64,000 nucleotides of DNA. It comes from Alphaproteobacteria bacterium. Lineage in GTDB: Bacteria > Pseudomonadota > Alphaproteobacteria > CALKHQ01. The translations under genes and the position numbers were made by a program. The DNA lies in the NCBI GenBank assembly GCA_965227515.1, contig CBDDFZ010000001.1, forward strand, positions 736,001 to 800,000. The letters are read 5' to 3'. The notes beneath the pieces are model-generated. The model ran no database searches. It was not told where the DNA came from and saw only the letters and a program-made list of their open reading frames with translations. This document shows positions 46,321 to 51,221 of the stretch, piece after piece (positions within the stretch are counted from its first letter, which is position 1; each line of letters begins with the position of its first letter).

Positions 46321-46705
46321 GGGAACGCCATCGCGTTCCAAGCGATCAGTAACGTGCTTGAATTTCTCGAAGAGCATCCAAAGACCAGACTGTTGTGTGC
46401 ACGTTTCCGACCCTAATATTGTGTCGTCCATATCTAGTTGGAGACGGTCAATGCCCTGGCCGAATTATTGGTGCTCTGGTTACAATAGTTCATAGTATAG
46501 TGGGCTGGTTGATCGACTAAAGTATATGCGAATAGATCCCAAATCTAATATTTGATGTTCCGCAAAAAAATGAAAAACGCAGAACGAGCCAGCTCATTCG
46601 CAGAAGTAGAACACAATATTCGCCAAAGTGGATGGAGTAGAACTCCTATTTATTCGCAACGACCTCGATATTTAGCTATACTGCATATGATGCTTTGTTC
46701 ATTAT

Positions 46706-47131
46706 TTAATGAGCAAGACTCATTAGTTTGATGAATCCCGCTTCAAGATCCACGCCTAGCGCATCTTGATAGTTTTGCTGGGCCTGATCAACAAATCGCG
46801 CGCCTGGCGTCTTGATGTCGCGCCACAAACCACCTAGGTCCGAGGGGAAATATTCCAAGGTAATGCCTGCGATAAACGCAGTGTAGTATGCAGAAAAGTA
46901 GTCACCGCGCTCAATGTGTCCGGCTATCTGATCAACCATCATTTCCTCAAATACTGCCCTGGTTTCCCGGATGATATCTCTCGGAGGGAGTATATTTGGA
47001 TCAGCAAAATTGTCGTCAATGATCGACTTGCCATCATTGATTGCGAGCGGTTCGTCAGCGTGGACATTCTCGACTGAAAGGCAGGCGGTGAATAATACAA
47101 CAACCACACTCATAGAATGCAAAATTCTCAT
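46706..47131 (-). CDS. Hypothetical exported protein (low-GC islet)
   Basis: 141-aa ORF with signal-peptide-like N-terminus; ATGA overlap with upstream ORF; no recognised motif. Confidence 0.5.
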   Translation of the reverse strand: MRILHSMSVVVVLFTACLSVENVHADEPLAINDGKSIIDDNFADPNILPPRDIIRETRAVFEEMMVDQIAGHIERGDYFSAYYTAFIAGITLEYFPSDLGGLWRDIKTPGARFVDQAQQNYQDALGVDLEAGFIKLMSLAH

Positions 47132-47508
47132 GACTGATCTCCTGTCGTCGCTATATATGCAGTGTGGTGTGTTTCAATTAGTTCCCGTGCCTTCTCAAGC
47201 AAGTGAGCCCGCAACGCCGGCCTTACCCCTGCCCGCAATGAAGACCAACCGCCATTCCTTTTTACTTGCGTCTCAACCATAGCTAAGTACGCAGTAATCG
47301 CTGCGCCACAGCTCTGGAAAGCGCTATCGATGGCTGAATCTATATGTTGCCCGTCCGCTACATGATGTGCGGCCCCAAACTCTGCACAGACAATAAAATC
47401 TCGAAAGCGACTTTCTAGAGAATTTGTGCCTGAGGTGCTCGATCCACTGGAGGCAACGCAGCCCGCTAGAAAGACGACCAAAGCTAGTATGCCAATTCTG
47501 TGATGCAT
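47128..47508 (-). CDS. Hypothetical lipoprotein (low-GC islet)
   Basis: Lipobox 'FLAGC' after a hydrophobic stretch, followed by a Ser-rich linker. Confidence 0.55.
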   Translation of the reverse strand: MHHRIGILALVVFLAGCVASSGSSTSGTNSLESRFRDFIVCAEFGAAHHVADGQHIDSAIDSAFQSCGAAITAYLAMVETQVKRNGGWSSLRAGVRPALRAHLLEKARELIETHHTAYIATTGDQS

Positions 47509-47734
47509 AAATCTGCCTCGTTCACCTCTGCTTCGATACAATTTTTTTCTATCACGCCGTCTGGTTGGTGGCAATTATTCCAATTGGGGGTTTATGGAAA
47601 TGTTAGTCACAACAGCAAGCGTAGATGGGCTAACGGCCCTCGTTTGGTGGCTTGCATGAGTGGTCGTCCCTCAAGATGTCGGTGTCATACACGGAGTCGG
47701 GTTTGCCGCTCCAAGACATCGAGGAGAGACGACC

Positions 47735-48778
47735 ATGAACTACTATGCCGGGATTGACGTTTCTTTGGAATGGTCATCGGTGTGCGTTGTTGACGGCGCG
47801 GGCGGGATTGTCTGCGAGGCTCGTATTGCGAGCACGCCGGCGGGTTTGTTGTTGTGGTTTGGGTCTTTGGGGATTTCGGTTGAGCGGATTGGTCTTGAGG
47901 CGGGGCCGTTGTCGCAATGGCTTGTGCGGGAGTGCGCGCAGGGCGGTCTTTCGGTTGAGTTGCTGGAGACGCGTCATGTTGCGCGGGCCCTTTCGACGAT
48001 GCCGGTGAAGTCGGACCGCTCGGACGCACGCGGGATTGCTCAGCTGATGCGTGTGGGCTGGTTTCGTCCGGTTCACTGCAAGTCTTTGGCGGCCCAGGAG
48101 ATGCGGGCCCTTTTGAAGGGTCGCGACCAGCTCCGCGCGAAGCTGCACGATCTTGAGATGCACCTTCGTGGTCAGCTGCGGAACTTCGGGCTGAAGGTAG
48201 GGCACACCACCAGGCGCAGCTTTTCGACACGTATTTCGGAGCTTGTGGCGGGGCATCCGGTACTGGAGGCGGTGGCGGGGGCGCTGCTGTCGGCACGCGA
48301 TGGCCTGTTGCTATCGTTCACGGCGCTGGACCGGCAGGTCCGAGCGGCATCGCAGGCGGACGATCGCGCTCGCCTGCTGATGACGGTGCCGGGCGTGGGG
48401 AGCATTGTCGGACTGACCTACTTGTCGGGAGTGGACGACCCCGGGCGGTTTGCCTCGTCGCGCCTGGTGGGGGCGCACTTCGGCCTGACGCCGACCAAGC
48501 GCCAGTCGGGCGAGAGCGAGATGACGGGGCGGATCTCGAAGGTGGGCGATGCGGACGTGCGTGCAGCGCTTTACGAGGCGGCGCACGTAATCCTGACCCG
48601 GCCGATCAAGGGCGGGTGGTTGAAGAGCTGGGCGATGAAGCTGGCCAGGCGAGCCGGCATGAGGAAGGCGAAGGTCGCGCTGGCGCGCCGGCTGGCCGTG
48701 ATCATGCACCGGATGTGGGTTGACGGCACCGCGTTCAACCATGCCGGACCGGTGCGCCCGGCGATGGCAGCGGCCTAA
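47735..48778 (+). CDS. IS110-family DEDD recombinase/transposase
   Basis: 'YYAGIDVS', 'GLEAG', 'KSDRSDARGIA', 'LMTVPGVG', 'FGLTPTKRQSGE...GRISKVG'; RBS GAGGAG. Confidence 0.95.
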   Translation: MNYYAGIDVSLEWSSVCVVDGAGGIVCEARIASTPAGLLLWFGSLGISVERIGLEAGPLSQWLVRECAQGGLSVELLETRHVARALSTMPVKSDRSDARGIAQLMRVGWFRPVHCKSLAAQEMRALLKGRDQLRAKLHDLEMHLRGQLRNFGLKVGHTTRRSFSTRISELVAGHPVLEAVAGALLSARDGLLLSFTALDRQVRAASQADDRARLLMTVPGVGSIVGLTYLSGVDDPGRFASSRLVGAHFGLTPTKRQSGESEMTGRISKVGDADVRAALYEAAHVILTRPIKGGWLKSWAMKLARRAGMRKAKVALARRLAVIMHRMWVDGTAFNHAGPVRPAMAAA

Positions 48779-48853
48779 TGGCAAAGACGACCGCCGCATA
48801 GGGAGAACCAGCACACGAGCTTCGGCGGGCGCAGACACCGGCCCGTCAAGCGC

Positions 48854-48998
48854 CGTCCCGCGCCGGGACGATGGATCAGGTCAGGCCGCCATCCAGGATG
48901 TCGCCTCGCACGAGAGCACGCTTCCGTAGATTGGACCGACCGATCCTCGCATATCCATCTTGGTGGCGGCCGTGCGCCGACCCCGTACAGAAGCATGA
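48854..48998 (+). ncRNA. Predicted bridge/seek RNA of the IS110 element
   Basis: 5' hairpin plus two stem/internal-loop modules whose loop segments match the REP target and the donor circle junction; boundaries approximate, folded by eye. Confidence 0.75.
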
Positions 48999-49051
48999 CC
49001 CAGGCGCCGGGACGACGAAAAAGGGATTGACCAACAATGGCCCGTTACAGA

Positions 49052-49105
49052 AGCCTGGGTGAAACGAAGCGGAACCCGGGTTTCACTGCGTTCCACCCGG
49101 GTTAC
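49052..49105. repeat. Right part of the GTAG REP interrupted by the IS (left GTAG at 47621-47624)
   Basis: Reconstituted sequence is 49/56 identical to the reverse complement of 14225-14280. Confidence 0.9.
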
Positions 49106-49118
49106 GAGAGCTTGCCGC

Positions 49119-49973
49119 CTACAACGACCGCAAATACGCAATCAACGCCGCCATGTCCTCGTCGGTCATGTTGGCGTAGGCGTAGGTGCCCATCGGCGGC
49201 AGCAGCTGCGAGCCGTCGGGCCGCACGCCGGTGGTGATGATCTGGACCAGCTCCTCGTCTGAATAGCGCTCCAGGGCCGCTCCGGTGATCGGCGGCGAGA
49301 CGCTGACGCCCCACGGGCCGTGGAACGGGAAGCCGCCCTGGTTCAGCGCGTTCTCCAGGTCGGGCGCGCCCATTGGGCCGGGCGACGAGTGGCACTCGGT
49401 GCAGTGGCCGAGCGGGCCTGCCAGGTATTCGCCATACGCCAACTGATCGGCTGGGTCGACGTCGGCCACGCTGTCGATCGGCGGGCCGTAGGCGGGCGGC
49501 AGTGGCACGTGGTACTCGGACGGCTGCACCTCGTTCTCCACCGCCGGCACTTGCCTGAGATAGGCGATGATCGCGTCGACATCGTTGTCGGAAAGCCCGC
49601 GATAGACCTGGCACGGCATCGGCGGGCCGATGATGGCCCCGTCCGGCCGCAGGCACTCGCGGATGGCGCGCGCGATATCCTCGTCGCTCCAGGTCCCGAT
49701 GCCGGTTCCCTCGTCGGGCGTGATGTTCGGCGTGAAGACCATGAACACGCCGGGTTCCTCGATCGGCAGGCCGCCGGCCAGTTCCATGCCGGGGATCAGC
49801 CCGTCCTGGTTTTGCGGCGTGTGGCAGTTGCCGCAATTGACGATGGACTGCATCAGGTAGGTGCCGCGCTCCAGCGGCGTTTGCCCGGTCGCCACGGACG
49901 CGCCGGTCGCCAGGCACAAAAAAACGGCCGCGGCAGATGCGCCACGAACCGTCCACTTCCCACCGAACTGCAT
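49119..49973 (-). CDS. Diheme cytochrome c
   Basis: Signal peptide, 'CGNCH' and 'CTECH' heme motifs, 'PNITPD'. Confidence 0.9.
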   Translation of the reverse strand: MQFGGKWTVRGASAAAVFLCLATGASVATGQTPLERGTYLMQSIVNCGNCHTPQNQDGLIPGMELAGGLPIEEPGVFMVFTPNITPDEGTGIGTWSDEDIARAIRECLRPDGAIIGPPMPCQVYRGLSDNDVDAIIAYLRQVPAVENEVQPSEYHVPLPPAYGPPIDSVADVDPADQLAYGEYLAGPLGHCTECHSSPGPMGAPDLENALNQGGFPFHGPWGVSVSPPITGAALERYSDEELVQIITTGVRPDGSQLLPPMGTYAYANMTDEDMAALIAYLRSL

Positions 49974-50070: not shown

Positions 50071-50436
50071 TCACGCGGTGCCGGGCCCCGGTTGCCACAG
50101 TTCGATCGGGTTGCCTTCGGGATCGTGGATGCGGGCGAAACGGCCGATCTCGACACTGTCCCATTCGGCGCGGGTCTCGACCGCGATGCCGGCGGCTTCA
50201 AACTGGGCGATCATCGCGTCCAGGTCGTCGACGCGGAAGTTGATCATCCATTGCTGCTCGGCCCGGCCGAAATAGTCGGTGTCCCGGTCGAACGGCGCGA
50301 ACACGGTGGTGCCGGCCTGCTGCTGCCAAGGCGGCACGCCGGCGTCGACGCCCAGGTGGTCCTTGTACCATTGCACCAGCGCGTCCGGGTCGCGCGCGCG
50401 AAAGAACACCCCGCCGATCCCGTTCACCTTCTGCAT
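50071..50436 (-). CDS. VOC/glyoxalase family protein
   Basis: 'GIGGVFFRARDP', 'NFRVDDLD', 'DPEGNPIELWQP'. Confidence 0.9.
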   Translation of the reverse strand: MQKVNGIGGVFFRARDPDALVQWYKDHLGVDAGVPPWQQQAGTTVFAPFDRDTDYFGRAEQQWMINFRVDDLDAMIAQFEAAGIAVETRAEWDSVEIGRFARIHDPEGNPIELWQPGPGTA

Positions 50437-50563
50437 GACGTTGTCCCTCTTGGTCGCGGAGACTCTACCTTGTCGTGAGATTGCACTTGATTGCCGGCCA
50501 CGCCACAACGACATTAGACAATATGGACGATTTGTCCATTCCAGGATCAGGGGAGTCACGAAG

Positions 50564-50815
50564 ATGCGCACGATGTCTGCCACGGAAGCCAAACAGGCGT
50601 TCGGGCGTGCATTGGATATCGCCCAGCGGGAGCCGGTGGTGATCCGCAAGCAGAACCGCGACGTCGCCGTTCTGGTGTCCGCGCAAGACTATCAAGAACT
50701 GCGCAGGGCGCGCATTGCAGAGCTGGAGGCGCTTTGCGACGACATTGCCGCGGATGTGGCGCGCAAAGGGATGACGGAAGAACTGTATGCAGAGCTGATG
50801 AAGGATGTCGATTGA
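50564..50815 (+). CDS. Phd/YefM family antitoxin
   Basis: 'MSATEAKQAFGRALDIAQREPVVIRKQNRDVAVLVS'. Confidence 0.9.
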   Translation: MRTMSATEAKQAFGRALDIAQREPVVIRKQNRDVAVLVSAQDYQELRRARIAELEALCDDIAADVARKGMTEELYAELMKDVD

Positions 50816-51221
50816 GCGGGTGGTTCTGGATACCAACGTTCTGGTCAGCCGCCTCATCAAGCCGTCATCGGGCGCCGGCCAAGCTGTCTCGCTGGCGTTC
50901 AGACGGCACCTGGTCCTGACATCGGAAGCGCTCCTGTTCGAGATTGTCGATGTCCTCAGCAGGCCCAAATTCGCTTCGACCATCGAGGTGCCCGCCGCAC
51001 GGGCCCTGATACGCGCATTGGCAGGTGCGACCGAGCGCATTGCGATCAGCACCGATGTCGACGTCTGCCGCGACCCCAAGGACAACCATGTGCTTGCTCT
51101 GGCGCTGGATGGCATGGCGAGTGTCGTCATTACCGGCGACAGCGACCTGCTGGCTTTGCATCCGTTCAGAGGCATTCCAATTGTCACGCCGCGGCATTTC
51201 CTGGAATTGGACGCCGGCTGA
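50805..51221 (+). CDS. PIN-domain toxin
   Basis: 'VVLDTNVLVS', 'CRDPKDN', 'ITGDSDLL'; overlaps the antitoxin gene. Confidence 0.9.
   Translation: MSIERVVLDTNVLVSRLIKPSSGAGQAVSLAFRRHLVLTSEALLFEIVDVLSRPKFASTIEVPAARALIRALAGATERIAISTDVDVCRDPKDNHVLALALDGMASVVITGDSDLLALHPFRGIPIVTPRHFLELDAG

Follow-up and report, generated by a model that had tools for sequence, protein, structure and literature searches.

A predicted bridge RNA of an IS1111-group insertion sequence matches its REP target and the element's own ends

Results

An IS1111-group element interrupts a REP sequence

The DNA considered here is a 64,000-nucleotide stretch (the window) of contig CBDDFZ010000001.1 in the alphaproteobacterial genome assembly GCA_965227515.1; coordinates are those of the window unless stated otherwise. 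The window contains a 1,429-bp insertion sequence (IS; 47625–49053, ATGGGC...ACAGAAG, with one copy of the AG core counted at the right end) in which a transposase gene is followed by a long non-coding region. An earlier reading made from the letters alone (the sequence-only reading) had proposed that this region encodes a bridge RNA, that is, a non-coding RNA with target and donor guides. Here we describe four short segments of the predicted RNA that match the interrupted target and the ends of the element, together with their behavior in other copies of the element and in its homologues. The left flank, up to 47624, reads ...CGTAG and the right flank, 49054–49061, reads CCTGGGTG, which places the insertion point between the GTAG and the CC of a GTAG-headed repetitive extragenic palindromic (REP) sequence.

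The open frame in the window spans 372 amino acids, and the ATG at 47735 is the likely start of a 347-amino acid protein. This protein matches the Pfam families DEDD_Tnp_IS110 (PF01548, 1.9e-12) and Transposase_20 (PF02371, 1.2e-19), both above cut-offs, and scores 236.5 bits (cut-off 140) against NCBIfam NF033542, the model for "IS110 family RNA-guided transposase". It also aligns with the transposases of ISCro4 and IS621 in the PDB at E about 1e-10. The serine motif is included in this alignment, with GLTPTKRQSG of the transposase opposite GLTPRRYESG of ISCro4. The motifs GIDVS, LEAG, and KSDRSDAR align with GIDVS, MEAT, and KTDAVDAR in an N-terminal alignment that is weak when taken alone (i-Evalue 3.7e+02). 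A GL-P----S(t)G motif with the catalytic serine forms part of the definition of the family (Siddiquee 2024, PMC11187229).

Imperfect subterminal inverted repeats of 18 nt (72% complementary) lie 6 nt from each end of the element. The non-coding DNA amounts to 110 nt before the gene (47625–47734) and 275 nt after it (48779–49053). Subterminal inverted repeats and a long non-coding region 3′ of the gene are marks of the IS1111 group (Siddiquee 2024, PMC11187229; Durrant 2024, PMC11208160). Because the element has such repeats and its RNA region follows the transposase gene, it belongs to the IS1111 group of the IS110 family and not to IS110 proper. The sequence-only reading had spoken of an IS110 recombinase.

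A single AG is present in the uninterrupted site, whereas AG flanks the occupied site on both sides. The target is therefore not duplicated upon insertion, and target and element share AG as their core (CT on the opposite strand). Uninterrupted GTAG+CC(T/C)GG(G/A)TG sites number 114 across the genome, which comprises two contigs totaling 5.5 Mb with a G+C content of 66.6%, and a further 20 sites are occupied. About 0.66 would be expected per 12-mer, which identifies the target as a GTAG-headed REP. In the window, this REP is one of an inverted pair located 3′ of a cytochrome c gene; the extragenic position was checked for the window copy only. Targeting of REPs by IS110-family elements has long been known (Tobes & Pareja 2006, PMC1525189; Pares-Guillen 2025, PMC12288879). 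Two genes elsewhere in the genome match the Y1-transposase family (PF01797) above cut-off (G000:C1:2017088-2017375 and C1:1603908-1604246) and are candidates for REP-associated transposases that maintain the targeted REP family.

Two guide variants in one genome track two target variants

The genome holds 20 full copies of the element and one deletion derivative. Identity between copies starts after ...GTAG and stops at ...ACAGAAG, and copy lengths include 1429 and 1420 bp. Every full copy lies between GTAG and CC(T/C)GG(G/A)TG in a single orientation and retains an open reading frame of 345–347 amino acids, while the insertion flanks differ among all copies. The base 5′ of GTAG at these 20 sites is C in 15, T in 3, and A in 2. 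Copies that share the guide of the window copy are 97–100% identical to it, with one exception at 93%. The element is active-looking. The deletion derivative (G000:C1:998352-999209) retains the left end with ~720 bp of the gene, fused through a short TGGACCG repeat to the final ~150 bp; it lacks the target-binding arm of the RNA and has a C-to-T change in its right end.

Four segments were proposed as guides: segments 1 and 2, which would read the target, and segments 3 and 4, which would read the ends of the element (Table 1). The 3′ non-coding regions of the 20 copies occur as two variants that differ at 4 positions within the RNA, one of which falls in segment 1, where A48895 of the window is replaced by G in 13 copies. 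Variant 1 (guide CATCCAGG; 7 copies, including that of the window) is found at CCTGGGTG (6 copies) and CCTGGATG (1 copy), all of the form CCTGG(G/A)TG. Variant 2 (guide CATCCGGG; 13 copies) is found at CCCGGATG (9 copies), CCCGGGTG (2 copies), and CCTGGGTG (2 copies), and 11 of its 13 copies thus lie in CCCGG(A/G)TG. Guide variant and third target base (T or C) are associated across the 20 copies with a Fisher p of 4.6e-4. A one-base change in the guide therefore tracks a one-base change in the target within one genome. The preferred target given in the sequence-only reading, CGTAGCCTGG(A/G)TG, describes the guide variant of the window, and the second variant prefers CCCGGATG.

Every imperfect match between guide and target within the genome is a G·U or G·T wobble: either U in CAUCC... 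lies opposite G in ...GGGTG, or the G of variant 2 lies opposite T in CCTGG. The match of segment 1 to its target in the window had been counted correctly as 7 of 8, and the mismatch is such a U·G wobble. For variant 2, the perfectly matching site is occupied 9 times and empty 18 times, compared with 2 occupied and 60 empty for the U·G-wobble site (p=2.6e-4). Perfectly matching sites are thus filled about ten times as often as wobble sites, an apparent wobble penalty.

Four segments covary with flanks and ends across homologues

A scan that included one genome per species yielded 75 homologous loci with transposases 37–69% identical. The hosts are mostly alphaproteobacterial metagenome bins, and those with names include Nitrobacter, Xanthobacter, Mesorhizobium, Methylocystis, and Leisingera. 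With loci kept at an nhmmer E ≤ 1e-3, the non-coding DNA aligns at the nucleotide level in 39 of the 75 homologues, from about 48848 to the right end. The columns of segment 1 are hypervariable in this alignment and equal the reverse complement of the right flank of the same locus in most cases. Exact matches are CATGCGGG in L019–L023, AATCCGCC in L012, and AACCCGCC in L013, and segment 1 also follows its own flank in L014, L060, L065, L029, L058, and L035. Within segment 2, AG followed by AU is invariant and the variable part tracks the left flank over 9–11 nt in L024 and L025, 8 nt in L036, and 7 nt in L055. The left end of the element starts with AT in all homologues. Segment 3 changes along with this end (ATGGGG with CCCCAT, ATGGTG with CACCAT, and ATGCCG with GGCAT), as does segment 4 with the right end (ACAGAAG with ACAGAAG and AGAGAAG with AGAGAAG).

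Each segment was scored by its longest junction-anchored exact match to its own DNA and to permuted DNA (5000 permutations). Own and permuted scores were 6.14 and 2.52 for segment 1 (0/5000 permutations reached the own score), 4.50 and 2.56 for segment 2 (0/5000), 5.25 and 4.50 for segment 3 (4/5000), and 7.29 and 6.06 for segment 4 (0/5000). For L024, whose first match is an internal tandem copy, the right flank was entered manually in this test. We excluded the left flanks and ends of L045, L053, and L077, which were unreliable, and omitted loci without a recognizable end from the respective test. All four segments covary with the flank or end of their own element across homologues. Covariation of guides and targets in homologues was among the checks that the sequence-only reading had named, and its outcome is strong both in these permutations and in the Fisher test on the copies of a single genome.

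We also generated 20,000 dinucleotide-preserving shuffles of the non-coding region of the window element, with the terminal 12 nt excluded. Segments 1–4 were individually present in 5211, 2846, 117, and 39 shuffles, respectively, and all four together in none. A second 7/8 match to the target (GACCCAGG, 48997–49004) was rejected as a guide; it is unconserved in homologues, a match of this kind appears in 26% of shuffles, and it probably reflects chance. This match sits in the 3′ strand of the closing helix described below, and its A breaks a helix pair in the window element.

Comparative analysis of the predicted RNA

The sequence-only reading had folded 48854–48998 by eye into a 5′ hairpin (CGTCCCG-CGC-CGGGACG, 48854–48870) and two modules, the first with an outer stem (GGATC-A-GGTC / GACC-GATCC) and an inner hairpin (CTCG-CA-CGAG) and the second with an inner stem (GGTGGC / GCC-G-ACC). 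All of these stems are present in the sequence. The hairpin and the segments CATCCAGG, CGTAG (48925–48929), CCATCTT, and TACAGAAG lie exactly where that reading had placed them, and the strings it gave for the empty target and the circle junction are correct on the bottom strand for element boundaries of 47625–49053.

A consensus fold was calculated with RNAalifold from 31 of 32 distinct RNA sequences; L034, which is nearly identical to L055, was omitted. The consensus contains the 5′ hairpin, the outer stem of module 1, and the inner stem of module 2, and leaves all four segments unpaired. In the MAFFT alignment, 95.4% of cells pair, compared with 34–56% in slid controls, and both bases vary in 12 of 22 pairs; 0/500 shuffles do as well. 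Coordinates of the resulting helices are given in Table 1 with those of the other features.

Table 1 Features of the insertion sequence, its predicted RNA, and the interrupted target (window coordinates)
Feature	Position	Strand	Remarks
Left half of interrupted target, CGTAG	47620..47624	+	contains the REP head, GTAG, and the core dinucleotide, AG (47623-24)
Left-end terminal extension ATGGGC	47625..47630	+	donor half matched by segment 3; covaries in homologues
Left subterminal inverted repeat	47631..47648	+	72% complementary to 49030-49047
Transposase gene	47735..48778	+	347 aa; DEDD RuvC-like domain and Tnp domain with GLTPxxxxSG
Proposed bridge (long seek) RNA	48854..49014	+	~161 nt; ends placed by the closing helix
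Closing helix P0, 5′ strand	48854..48867	+	overlaps the local hairpin 48854-70; compensatory changes in homologues
Target-arm outer stem, 5′ strand	48873..48882	+	pairs with 48938-48946; two-sided changes (GC/CG/AU types)
Segment 1, proposed target guide CAUCCAGG (CATCCAGG as DNA)	48890..48897	+	Fisher test of variants; permutations in homologues
Target-arm variable inner hairpin	48899..48920	+	hairpin of varying length and sequence in 31/31 homologues
Segment 2, proposed target guide CGUAG, with AU	48925..48931	+	sense of the left flank, so pairs with the bottom strand; includes core AG
Target-arm outer stem, 3′ strand	48938..48946	+	comparative fold
Segment 3, proposed donor guide CCAUCUU	48955..48961	+	follows the left end in homologues
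Donor-arm hairpin between donor guides	48962..48984	+	two-sided changes in 5/5 pairs; 99.4% and 99.6% of cells paired
Segment 4, proposed donor guide UACAGAAG (TACAGAAG as DNA)	48986..48993	+	same sense as the right end 49046-53
Closing helix P0, 3′ strand	48999..49014	+	compensatory changes in homologues
Conserved TTGACC	49027..49032	+	possible -35 that would be completed across joined circle ends; TTGAC conserved at near-fixed distance from right end
Right subterminal inverted repeat	49030..49047	+	72% complementary to 47631-47648
Right part of interrupted REP (CCTGGGTG...) and inverted second REP copy ending ...CCCGGGTTACG	49054..49107	+	sequence

The loop and 3′ arm of the local 5′ hairpin are complementary to the segment that follows segment 4 (CGCCGGG/CCCGGCG and CGCAGGG/CCCTGCG, and CCCCGGG/CCCGGGG in L016). 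Homologues also show one-base deletions in one strand that are matched in the other. The 5′ arm finds its partner directly 3′ of that segment (GTCC/GGAT in one clade and ATGTC/GACAT in another). Across 30 sequences (L053 was dropped), 87.9% of the 390 cells in this closing helix pair, compared with 41–45% in slid controls; none of 1000 permutations attains as many pairs. The register was set for each sequence by its first 8 positions, which are thereby favored. In the window, the helix is formed by 48854-60/49008-14, 48861-64/49003-06, and 48865-67/48999-49001, and it appears in folds of the single sequence both without constraint and with the guides held open.

A covariance model that includes the closing helix has a single match in the 64-kb window (48850–49019). 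Of the 77 sources searched, 66 contain a match; every match is on the gene strand, and in each locus checked it lies 3′ of the gene. Alignment of 55 distinct sequences with the model (A2) gives 88.5% paired cells and compensatory changes in 27 of 30 pairs (0/500 shuffles), although this alignment was fitted to the tested structure.

The pairs of the local 5′ hairpin are almost invariant, whereas the competing long-range helix shows compensatory changes. The hairpin was therefore demoted as the sole reading of 48854–48870: the sequence described as a 5′ hairpin is probably one strand of the long closing helix, which puts the donor guides in a multiloop. Both structures may form. The RNA probably ends near 49014 rather than at 48998. 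Our best picture of the RNA is a closing helix around a target-binding arm (48873–48946) and a donor hairpin (48962–48984), with the donor guides in the multiloop. A search of Rfam 15 over 47000–49500 returned no family at E up to 1; that library holds no model of this kind, and the result does not speak against the RNA.

One homologue displays a rearrangement of this region. In L024 (L024:2540-3060), the whole ~253-nt 3′ non-coding region, including the RNA and the right end, is tandemly duplicated, and the joint follows AG. The duplication may be a rearrangement made by the transposase and brings to mind the ssr9 module of ISPpu9, which is mobile on its own.

Proposed mechanism and expression

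By analogy with IS621, ISEc11, and ISPa11, the element would excise as a circle in which the two ends abut at the core, and the predicted RNA would be made and then bound by the DEDD/serine transposase. The internal loop of the target arm would present CAUCCAGG and (C)GUAG, through which segments 1 and 2 would read the GTAG-headed REP. CCAUCUU and UACAGAAG, which flank the donor hairpin in the multiloop of the predicted fold, would read the circle junction. Strand exchange would occur at the shared AG/CT core and leave no target duplication. The AU at 48930–48931, directly after the target-matching part of segment 2, can pair with the AT that opens every left end and not with the target. Because the handshake guide of IS621 has the same property, we infer that AU plays this role here. 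The corresponding position of the donor arm, C48994, agrees by eye with the target in some homologues and disagrees in others.

In the gene's orientation, the segment complementary to the top strand lies 5′ of the segment complementary to the bottom strand. This is the order of IS1111 elements, which is the reverse of that in IS110-group elements (Siddiquee 2024, PMC11187229). The sequence-only reading had equated the guide order with that of IS621, which is correct only once the DNA is flipped, as that reading had done.

The RNA may be co-transcribed with the transposase gene from a promoter at the circle junction, as analogy with related elements suggests. The conserved TTGAC sits 17 nt before the right end and, together with the left end, could create a weak junction promoter. 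A terminator scan of 47550–49150 identified two terminator-like sites, both on the minus strand and within the number expected from shuffles.

Discussion

We consider it highly probable (roughly 0.88) that the element is a genuine RNA-guided IS of the IS1111 group, whose 3′ non-coding region encodes a bridge RNA (the "long seekRNA" of Siddiquee) that reads both the REP target and the element's own ends. The sequence-only proposal of an RNA-guided recombination system is thus upheld by sequence matches, covariation of all four segments, covarying stems, and site-specific insertion.

Several observations weigh against this interpretation. In 7 of 28 elements (L015, L017, L018, L024, L028, L036, and L077), the anchored match of segment 1 does not exceed 3 nt. 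By eye, L018 and L028 have wobbles next to the junction and the match in L024 is shifted by 2 nt; in L015, L017, L036, and L077, the first target guide does not match the element's own right flank. These four elements may have been moved in trans by the RNA of a sister element, or their guides may have drifted since insertion. Segment 2 is short, and its C (48925) is not enriched at occupied sites (15/20, compared with 81/114 empty sites). The signals of segments 3 and 4 comprise few independent changes, the left end ATGGCG of L014 and L017 is uncompensated in segment 3, and the permutation tests ignore shared ancestry, which is most relevant to these two segments. With regard to expression, a scan of both strands of 47550–49150 found no sigma-70-like promoter in the linear element, and the -10 sequence formed at the junction (GAAG+AT) agrees with the consensus at 3 of 6 positions only.

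Folding of the single sequence likewise counts against the proposal. The minimum free energy (MFE) structure of -77.3 kcal/mol pairs the region of segment 1 with that of segment 3 and lacks the fold drawn by eye, which emerges at -65.3 kcal/mol when the four segments are forced open. Mean unpaired probabilities of segments 1–4 are 0.13, 0.41, 0.15, and 0.73, and shuffle z-scores are weak (-1.8 and -1.4). We rejected the MFE pairing as the structure of the family because pairing between segments 1 and 3 is unconserved in homologues. The folding check named in the sequence-only reading accordingly gave a divided answer: the comparative fold leaves the segments unpaired within covarying stems, whereas the single-sequence fold buries segments 1 and 3.

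The alternative that survives best, although we judge it improbable, is that the working RNA is the target arm alone, a seekRNA of ~75–80 nt (about 48871–48948). The protein would then recognize the ends of the IS through the subterminal inverted repeats, and segments 3 and 4 would serve the processing or stability of a long precursor, or nothing. This model draws on ISEc11, for which an abundant RNA of 70–100 nt holds the target matches and is sufficient, the role of the 145–170-nt form being left open (Siddiquee 2024, PMC11187229). Given that sufficiency, donor guides may be dispensable in the IS1111 group, which is a further point against a bridge RNA that reads the ends. The target arm of our element has the size of the short RNA, the signals of segments 3 and 4 are weaker than those of segments 1 and 2, and there is the uncompensated change in L014 and L017. 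Against the model, segments 3 and 4 follow the ends in homologues (ATGGTG/CACCAT, ATGCCG/GGCAT, and ACAGAAG versus AGAGAAG), with permutation results of 4/5000 and 0/5000. The donor hairpin and the closing helix that frame these segments carry compensatory changes, and donor-binding nucleotides in a multiloop have been described in many IS1111 elements (Durrant 2024, PMC11208160).

Far less probable is a feature that acts at the level of DNA, such as internal pseudo-ends, protein-binding sites, or leftovers of nested insertions. Segments 3 and 4 do resemble the ends, as internal binding sites would, and the missing promoter of the linear element fits such a view. However, segments 1 and 2 track the flanking target, which varies between elements and between the two variants of one genome, and DNA sites of a conserved protein do not account for this tracking. 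Compensatory changes in four helices point to selection acting on a single strand that folds, and the protein family is both annotated and experimentally shown to be RNA-guided. It is just as hard to credit that the element is an immobile relic whose RNA gene and copies merely remain intact in sequence: the one deletion derivative with its mutated right end would fit, but open frames in 20/20 copies, 97–100% identity (93% in one case) among copies with the same guide, flanks that all differ, and occupancy that favors perfectly matching sites point the other way.

The bridge RNA that we favor resembles published systems in many respects. RNA-guided target choice by IS110 and IS1111 elements has been reported (Durrant 2024, PMC11208160; Siddiquee 2024, PMC11187229), and 93% of IS1111 elements have a predicted bridge RNA in their right end, with donor-binding nucleotides in a multiloop in many elements (Durrant 2024, PMC11208160). 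Our element is like ISPa11, ISEc11, and ISKpn4 in its subterminal inverted repeats, the non-coding region 3′ of the gene, the order of its guides, and a transposase of ~340 amino acids with GL-P----SG. The sizes of long and short seekRNAs (145–170 and 70–100 nt) fit the 161-nt whole and ~75-nt target arm predicted here, and ISPa11 likewise targets a REP (Siddiquee 2024, PMC11187229). By their published description, these elements differ from ours in host group, the relatives of our element being mostly in Alphaproteobacteria, and in the sequences of REP and guides. The seekRNA paper assigns no donor guides, whereas both donor segments described here covary with the ends (Siddiquee 2024, PMC11187229).

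The similarity to IS621 lies in two pairs of guides that would each read the two DNA strands around a CT core (in our element, AG on the gene strand), and in the two nucleotides after the right target guide that can pair with the donor as a handshake guide (Durrant 2024, PMC11208160; Hiraizumi 2024, PMC11208158); the transposases are related at E about 1e-10. The RNA of IS621 precedes the gene in the left end and both of its loops are simple internal loops, whereas the RNA of our element follows the gene. The module of gene plus RNA is inverted relative to the recombination sites, and a long helix closes the multiloop that contains the donor guides. In the subclade of our element, the first target guide is unpaired with the core and is followed by AU, AA, or CA instead of CU. 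IS621, too, has a GTAG/CTAC-headed REP as its target. The six examples of the 2024 bridge RNA study include the IS1111 elements ISCARN28, ISAzs32, and ISPa11.

As in ISPpu9, ISPpu10, and ISRm19, all copies lie at one position of the REP in one orientation with AG at both boundaries (PMC1525189; PMC12288879). ISPpu9 lacks a hybrid junction promoter and encodes the additional small RNAs Asr9 and Ssr9, and nothing like Asr9 or Ssr9 was seen here (PMC12288879). A plasmid search gave 228 matching records, one of them, outside the 15 listed, at 80–90% identity; the 15 listed records are 67–70% identical and are annotated as "IS110 family transposase" or not at all. Neither a close relative nor an ISfinder name was found among the plasmid matches listed (15 of 228). 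The element may already be catalogued, for example in ISfinder or in the tables of Durrant 2024.

The element adds no new mechanism and is a well-supported further example of the IS1111 group. It provides a clean natural test of the bridge RNA model in this less studied branch, in which four guides and four helices covary across a mostly alphaproteobacterial family. What deserves note are the two guide variants that share out a REP population, the apparent wobble penalty, and a three-way fold supported by covariation. It is tempting to speculate, with somewhat less than even confidence, that two guide alleles of one IS divide the REP population, with the A48895 allele confined to CCT... and the G allele preferring CCC... 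while also reaching CCT... through a G·T wobble; competition between the local hairpin and the closing helix could switch between long and short RNA. If the guide differences are causal, the genome documents how, in nature, the range and efficiency of an RNA-guided recombinase are determined by wobble pairs and by single-base changes in its guide. The occupancy figures bear on the tolerance of wobbles. The data also show the spread of such elements through REP populations, and a fold for this branch, with its closing helix, target arm, and multiloop donor guides, could guide the engineering of IS1111-type recombinases.

Two neighboring regions of the window were noted in passing. The left flank of the element (46700–47620) is markedly A+T-rich in a genome of 66.6% G+C and may be foreign DNA; it contains two small minus-strand frames (46706–47131 and 47128–47574), one of which has a signal-peptide-like start. 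Downstream of the element, adjacent small plus-strand frames at 50565–51221 (part of 50279–50815, and 50805–51221) resemble an antitoxin-toxin pair as judged from their translations alone.

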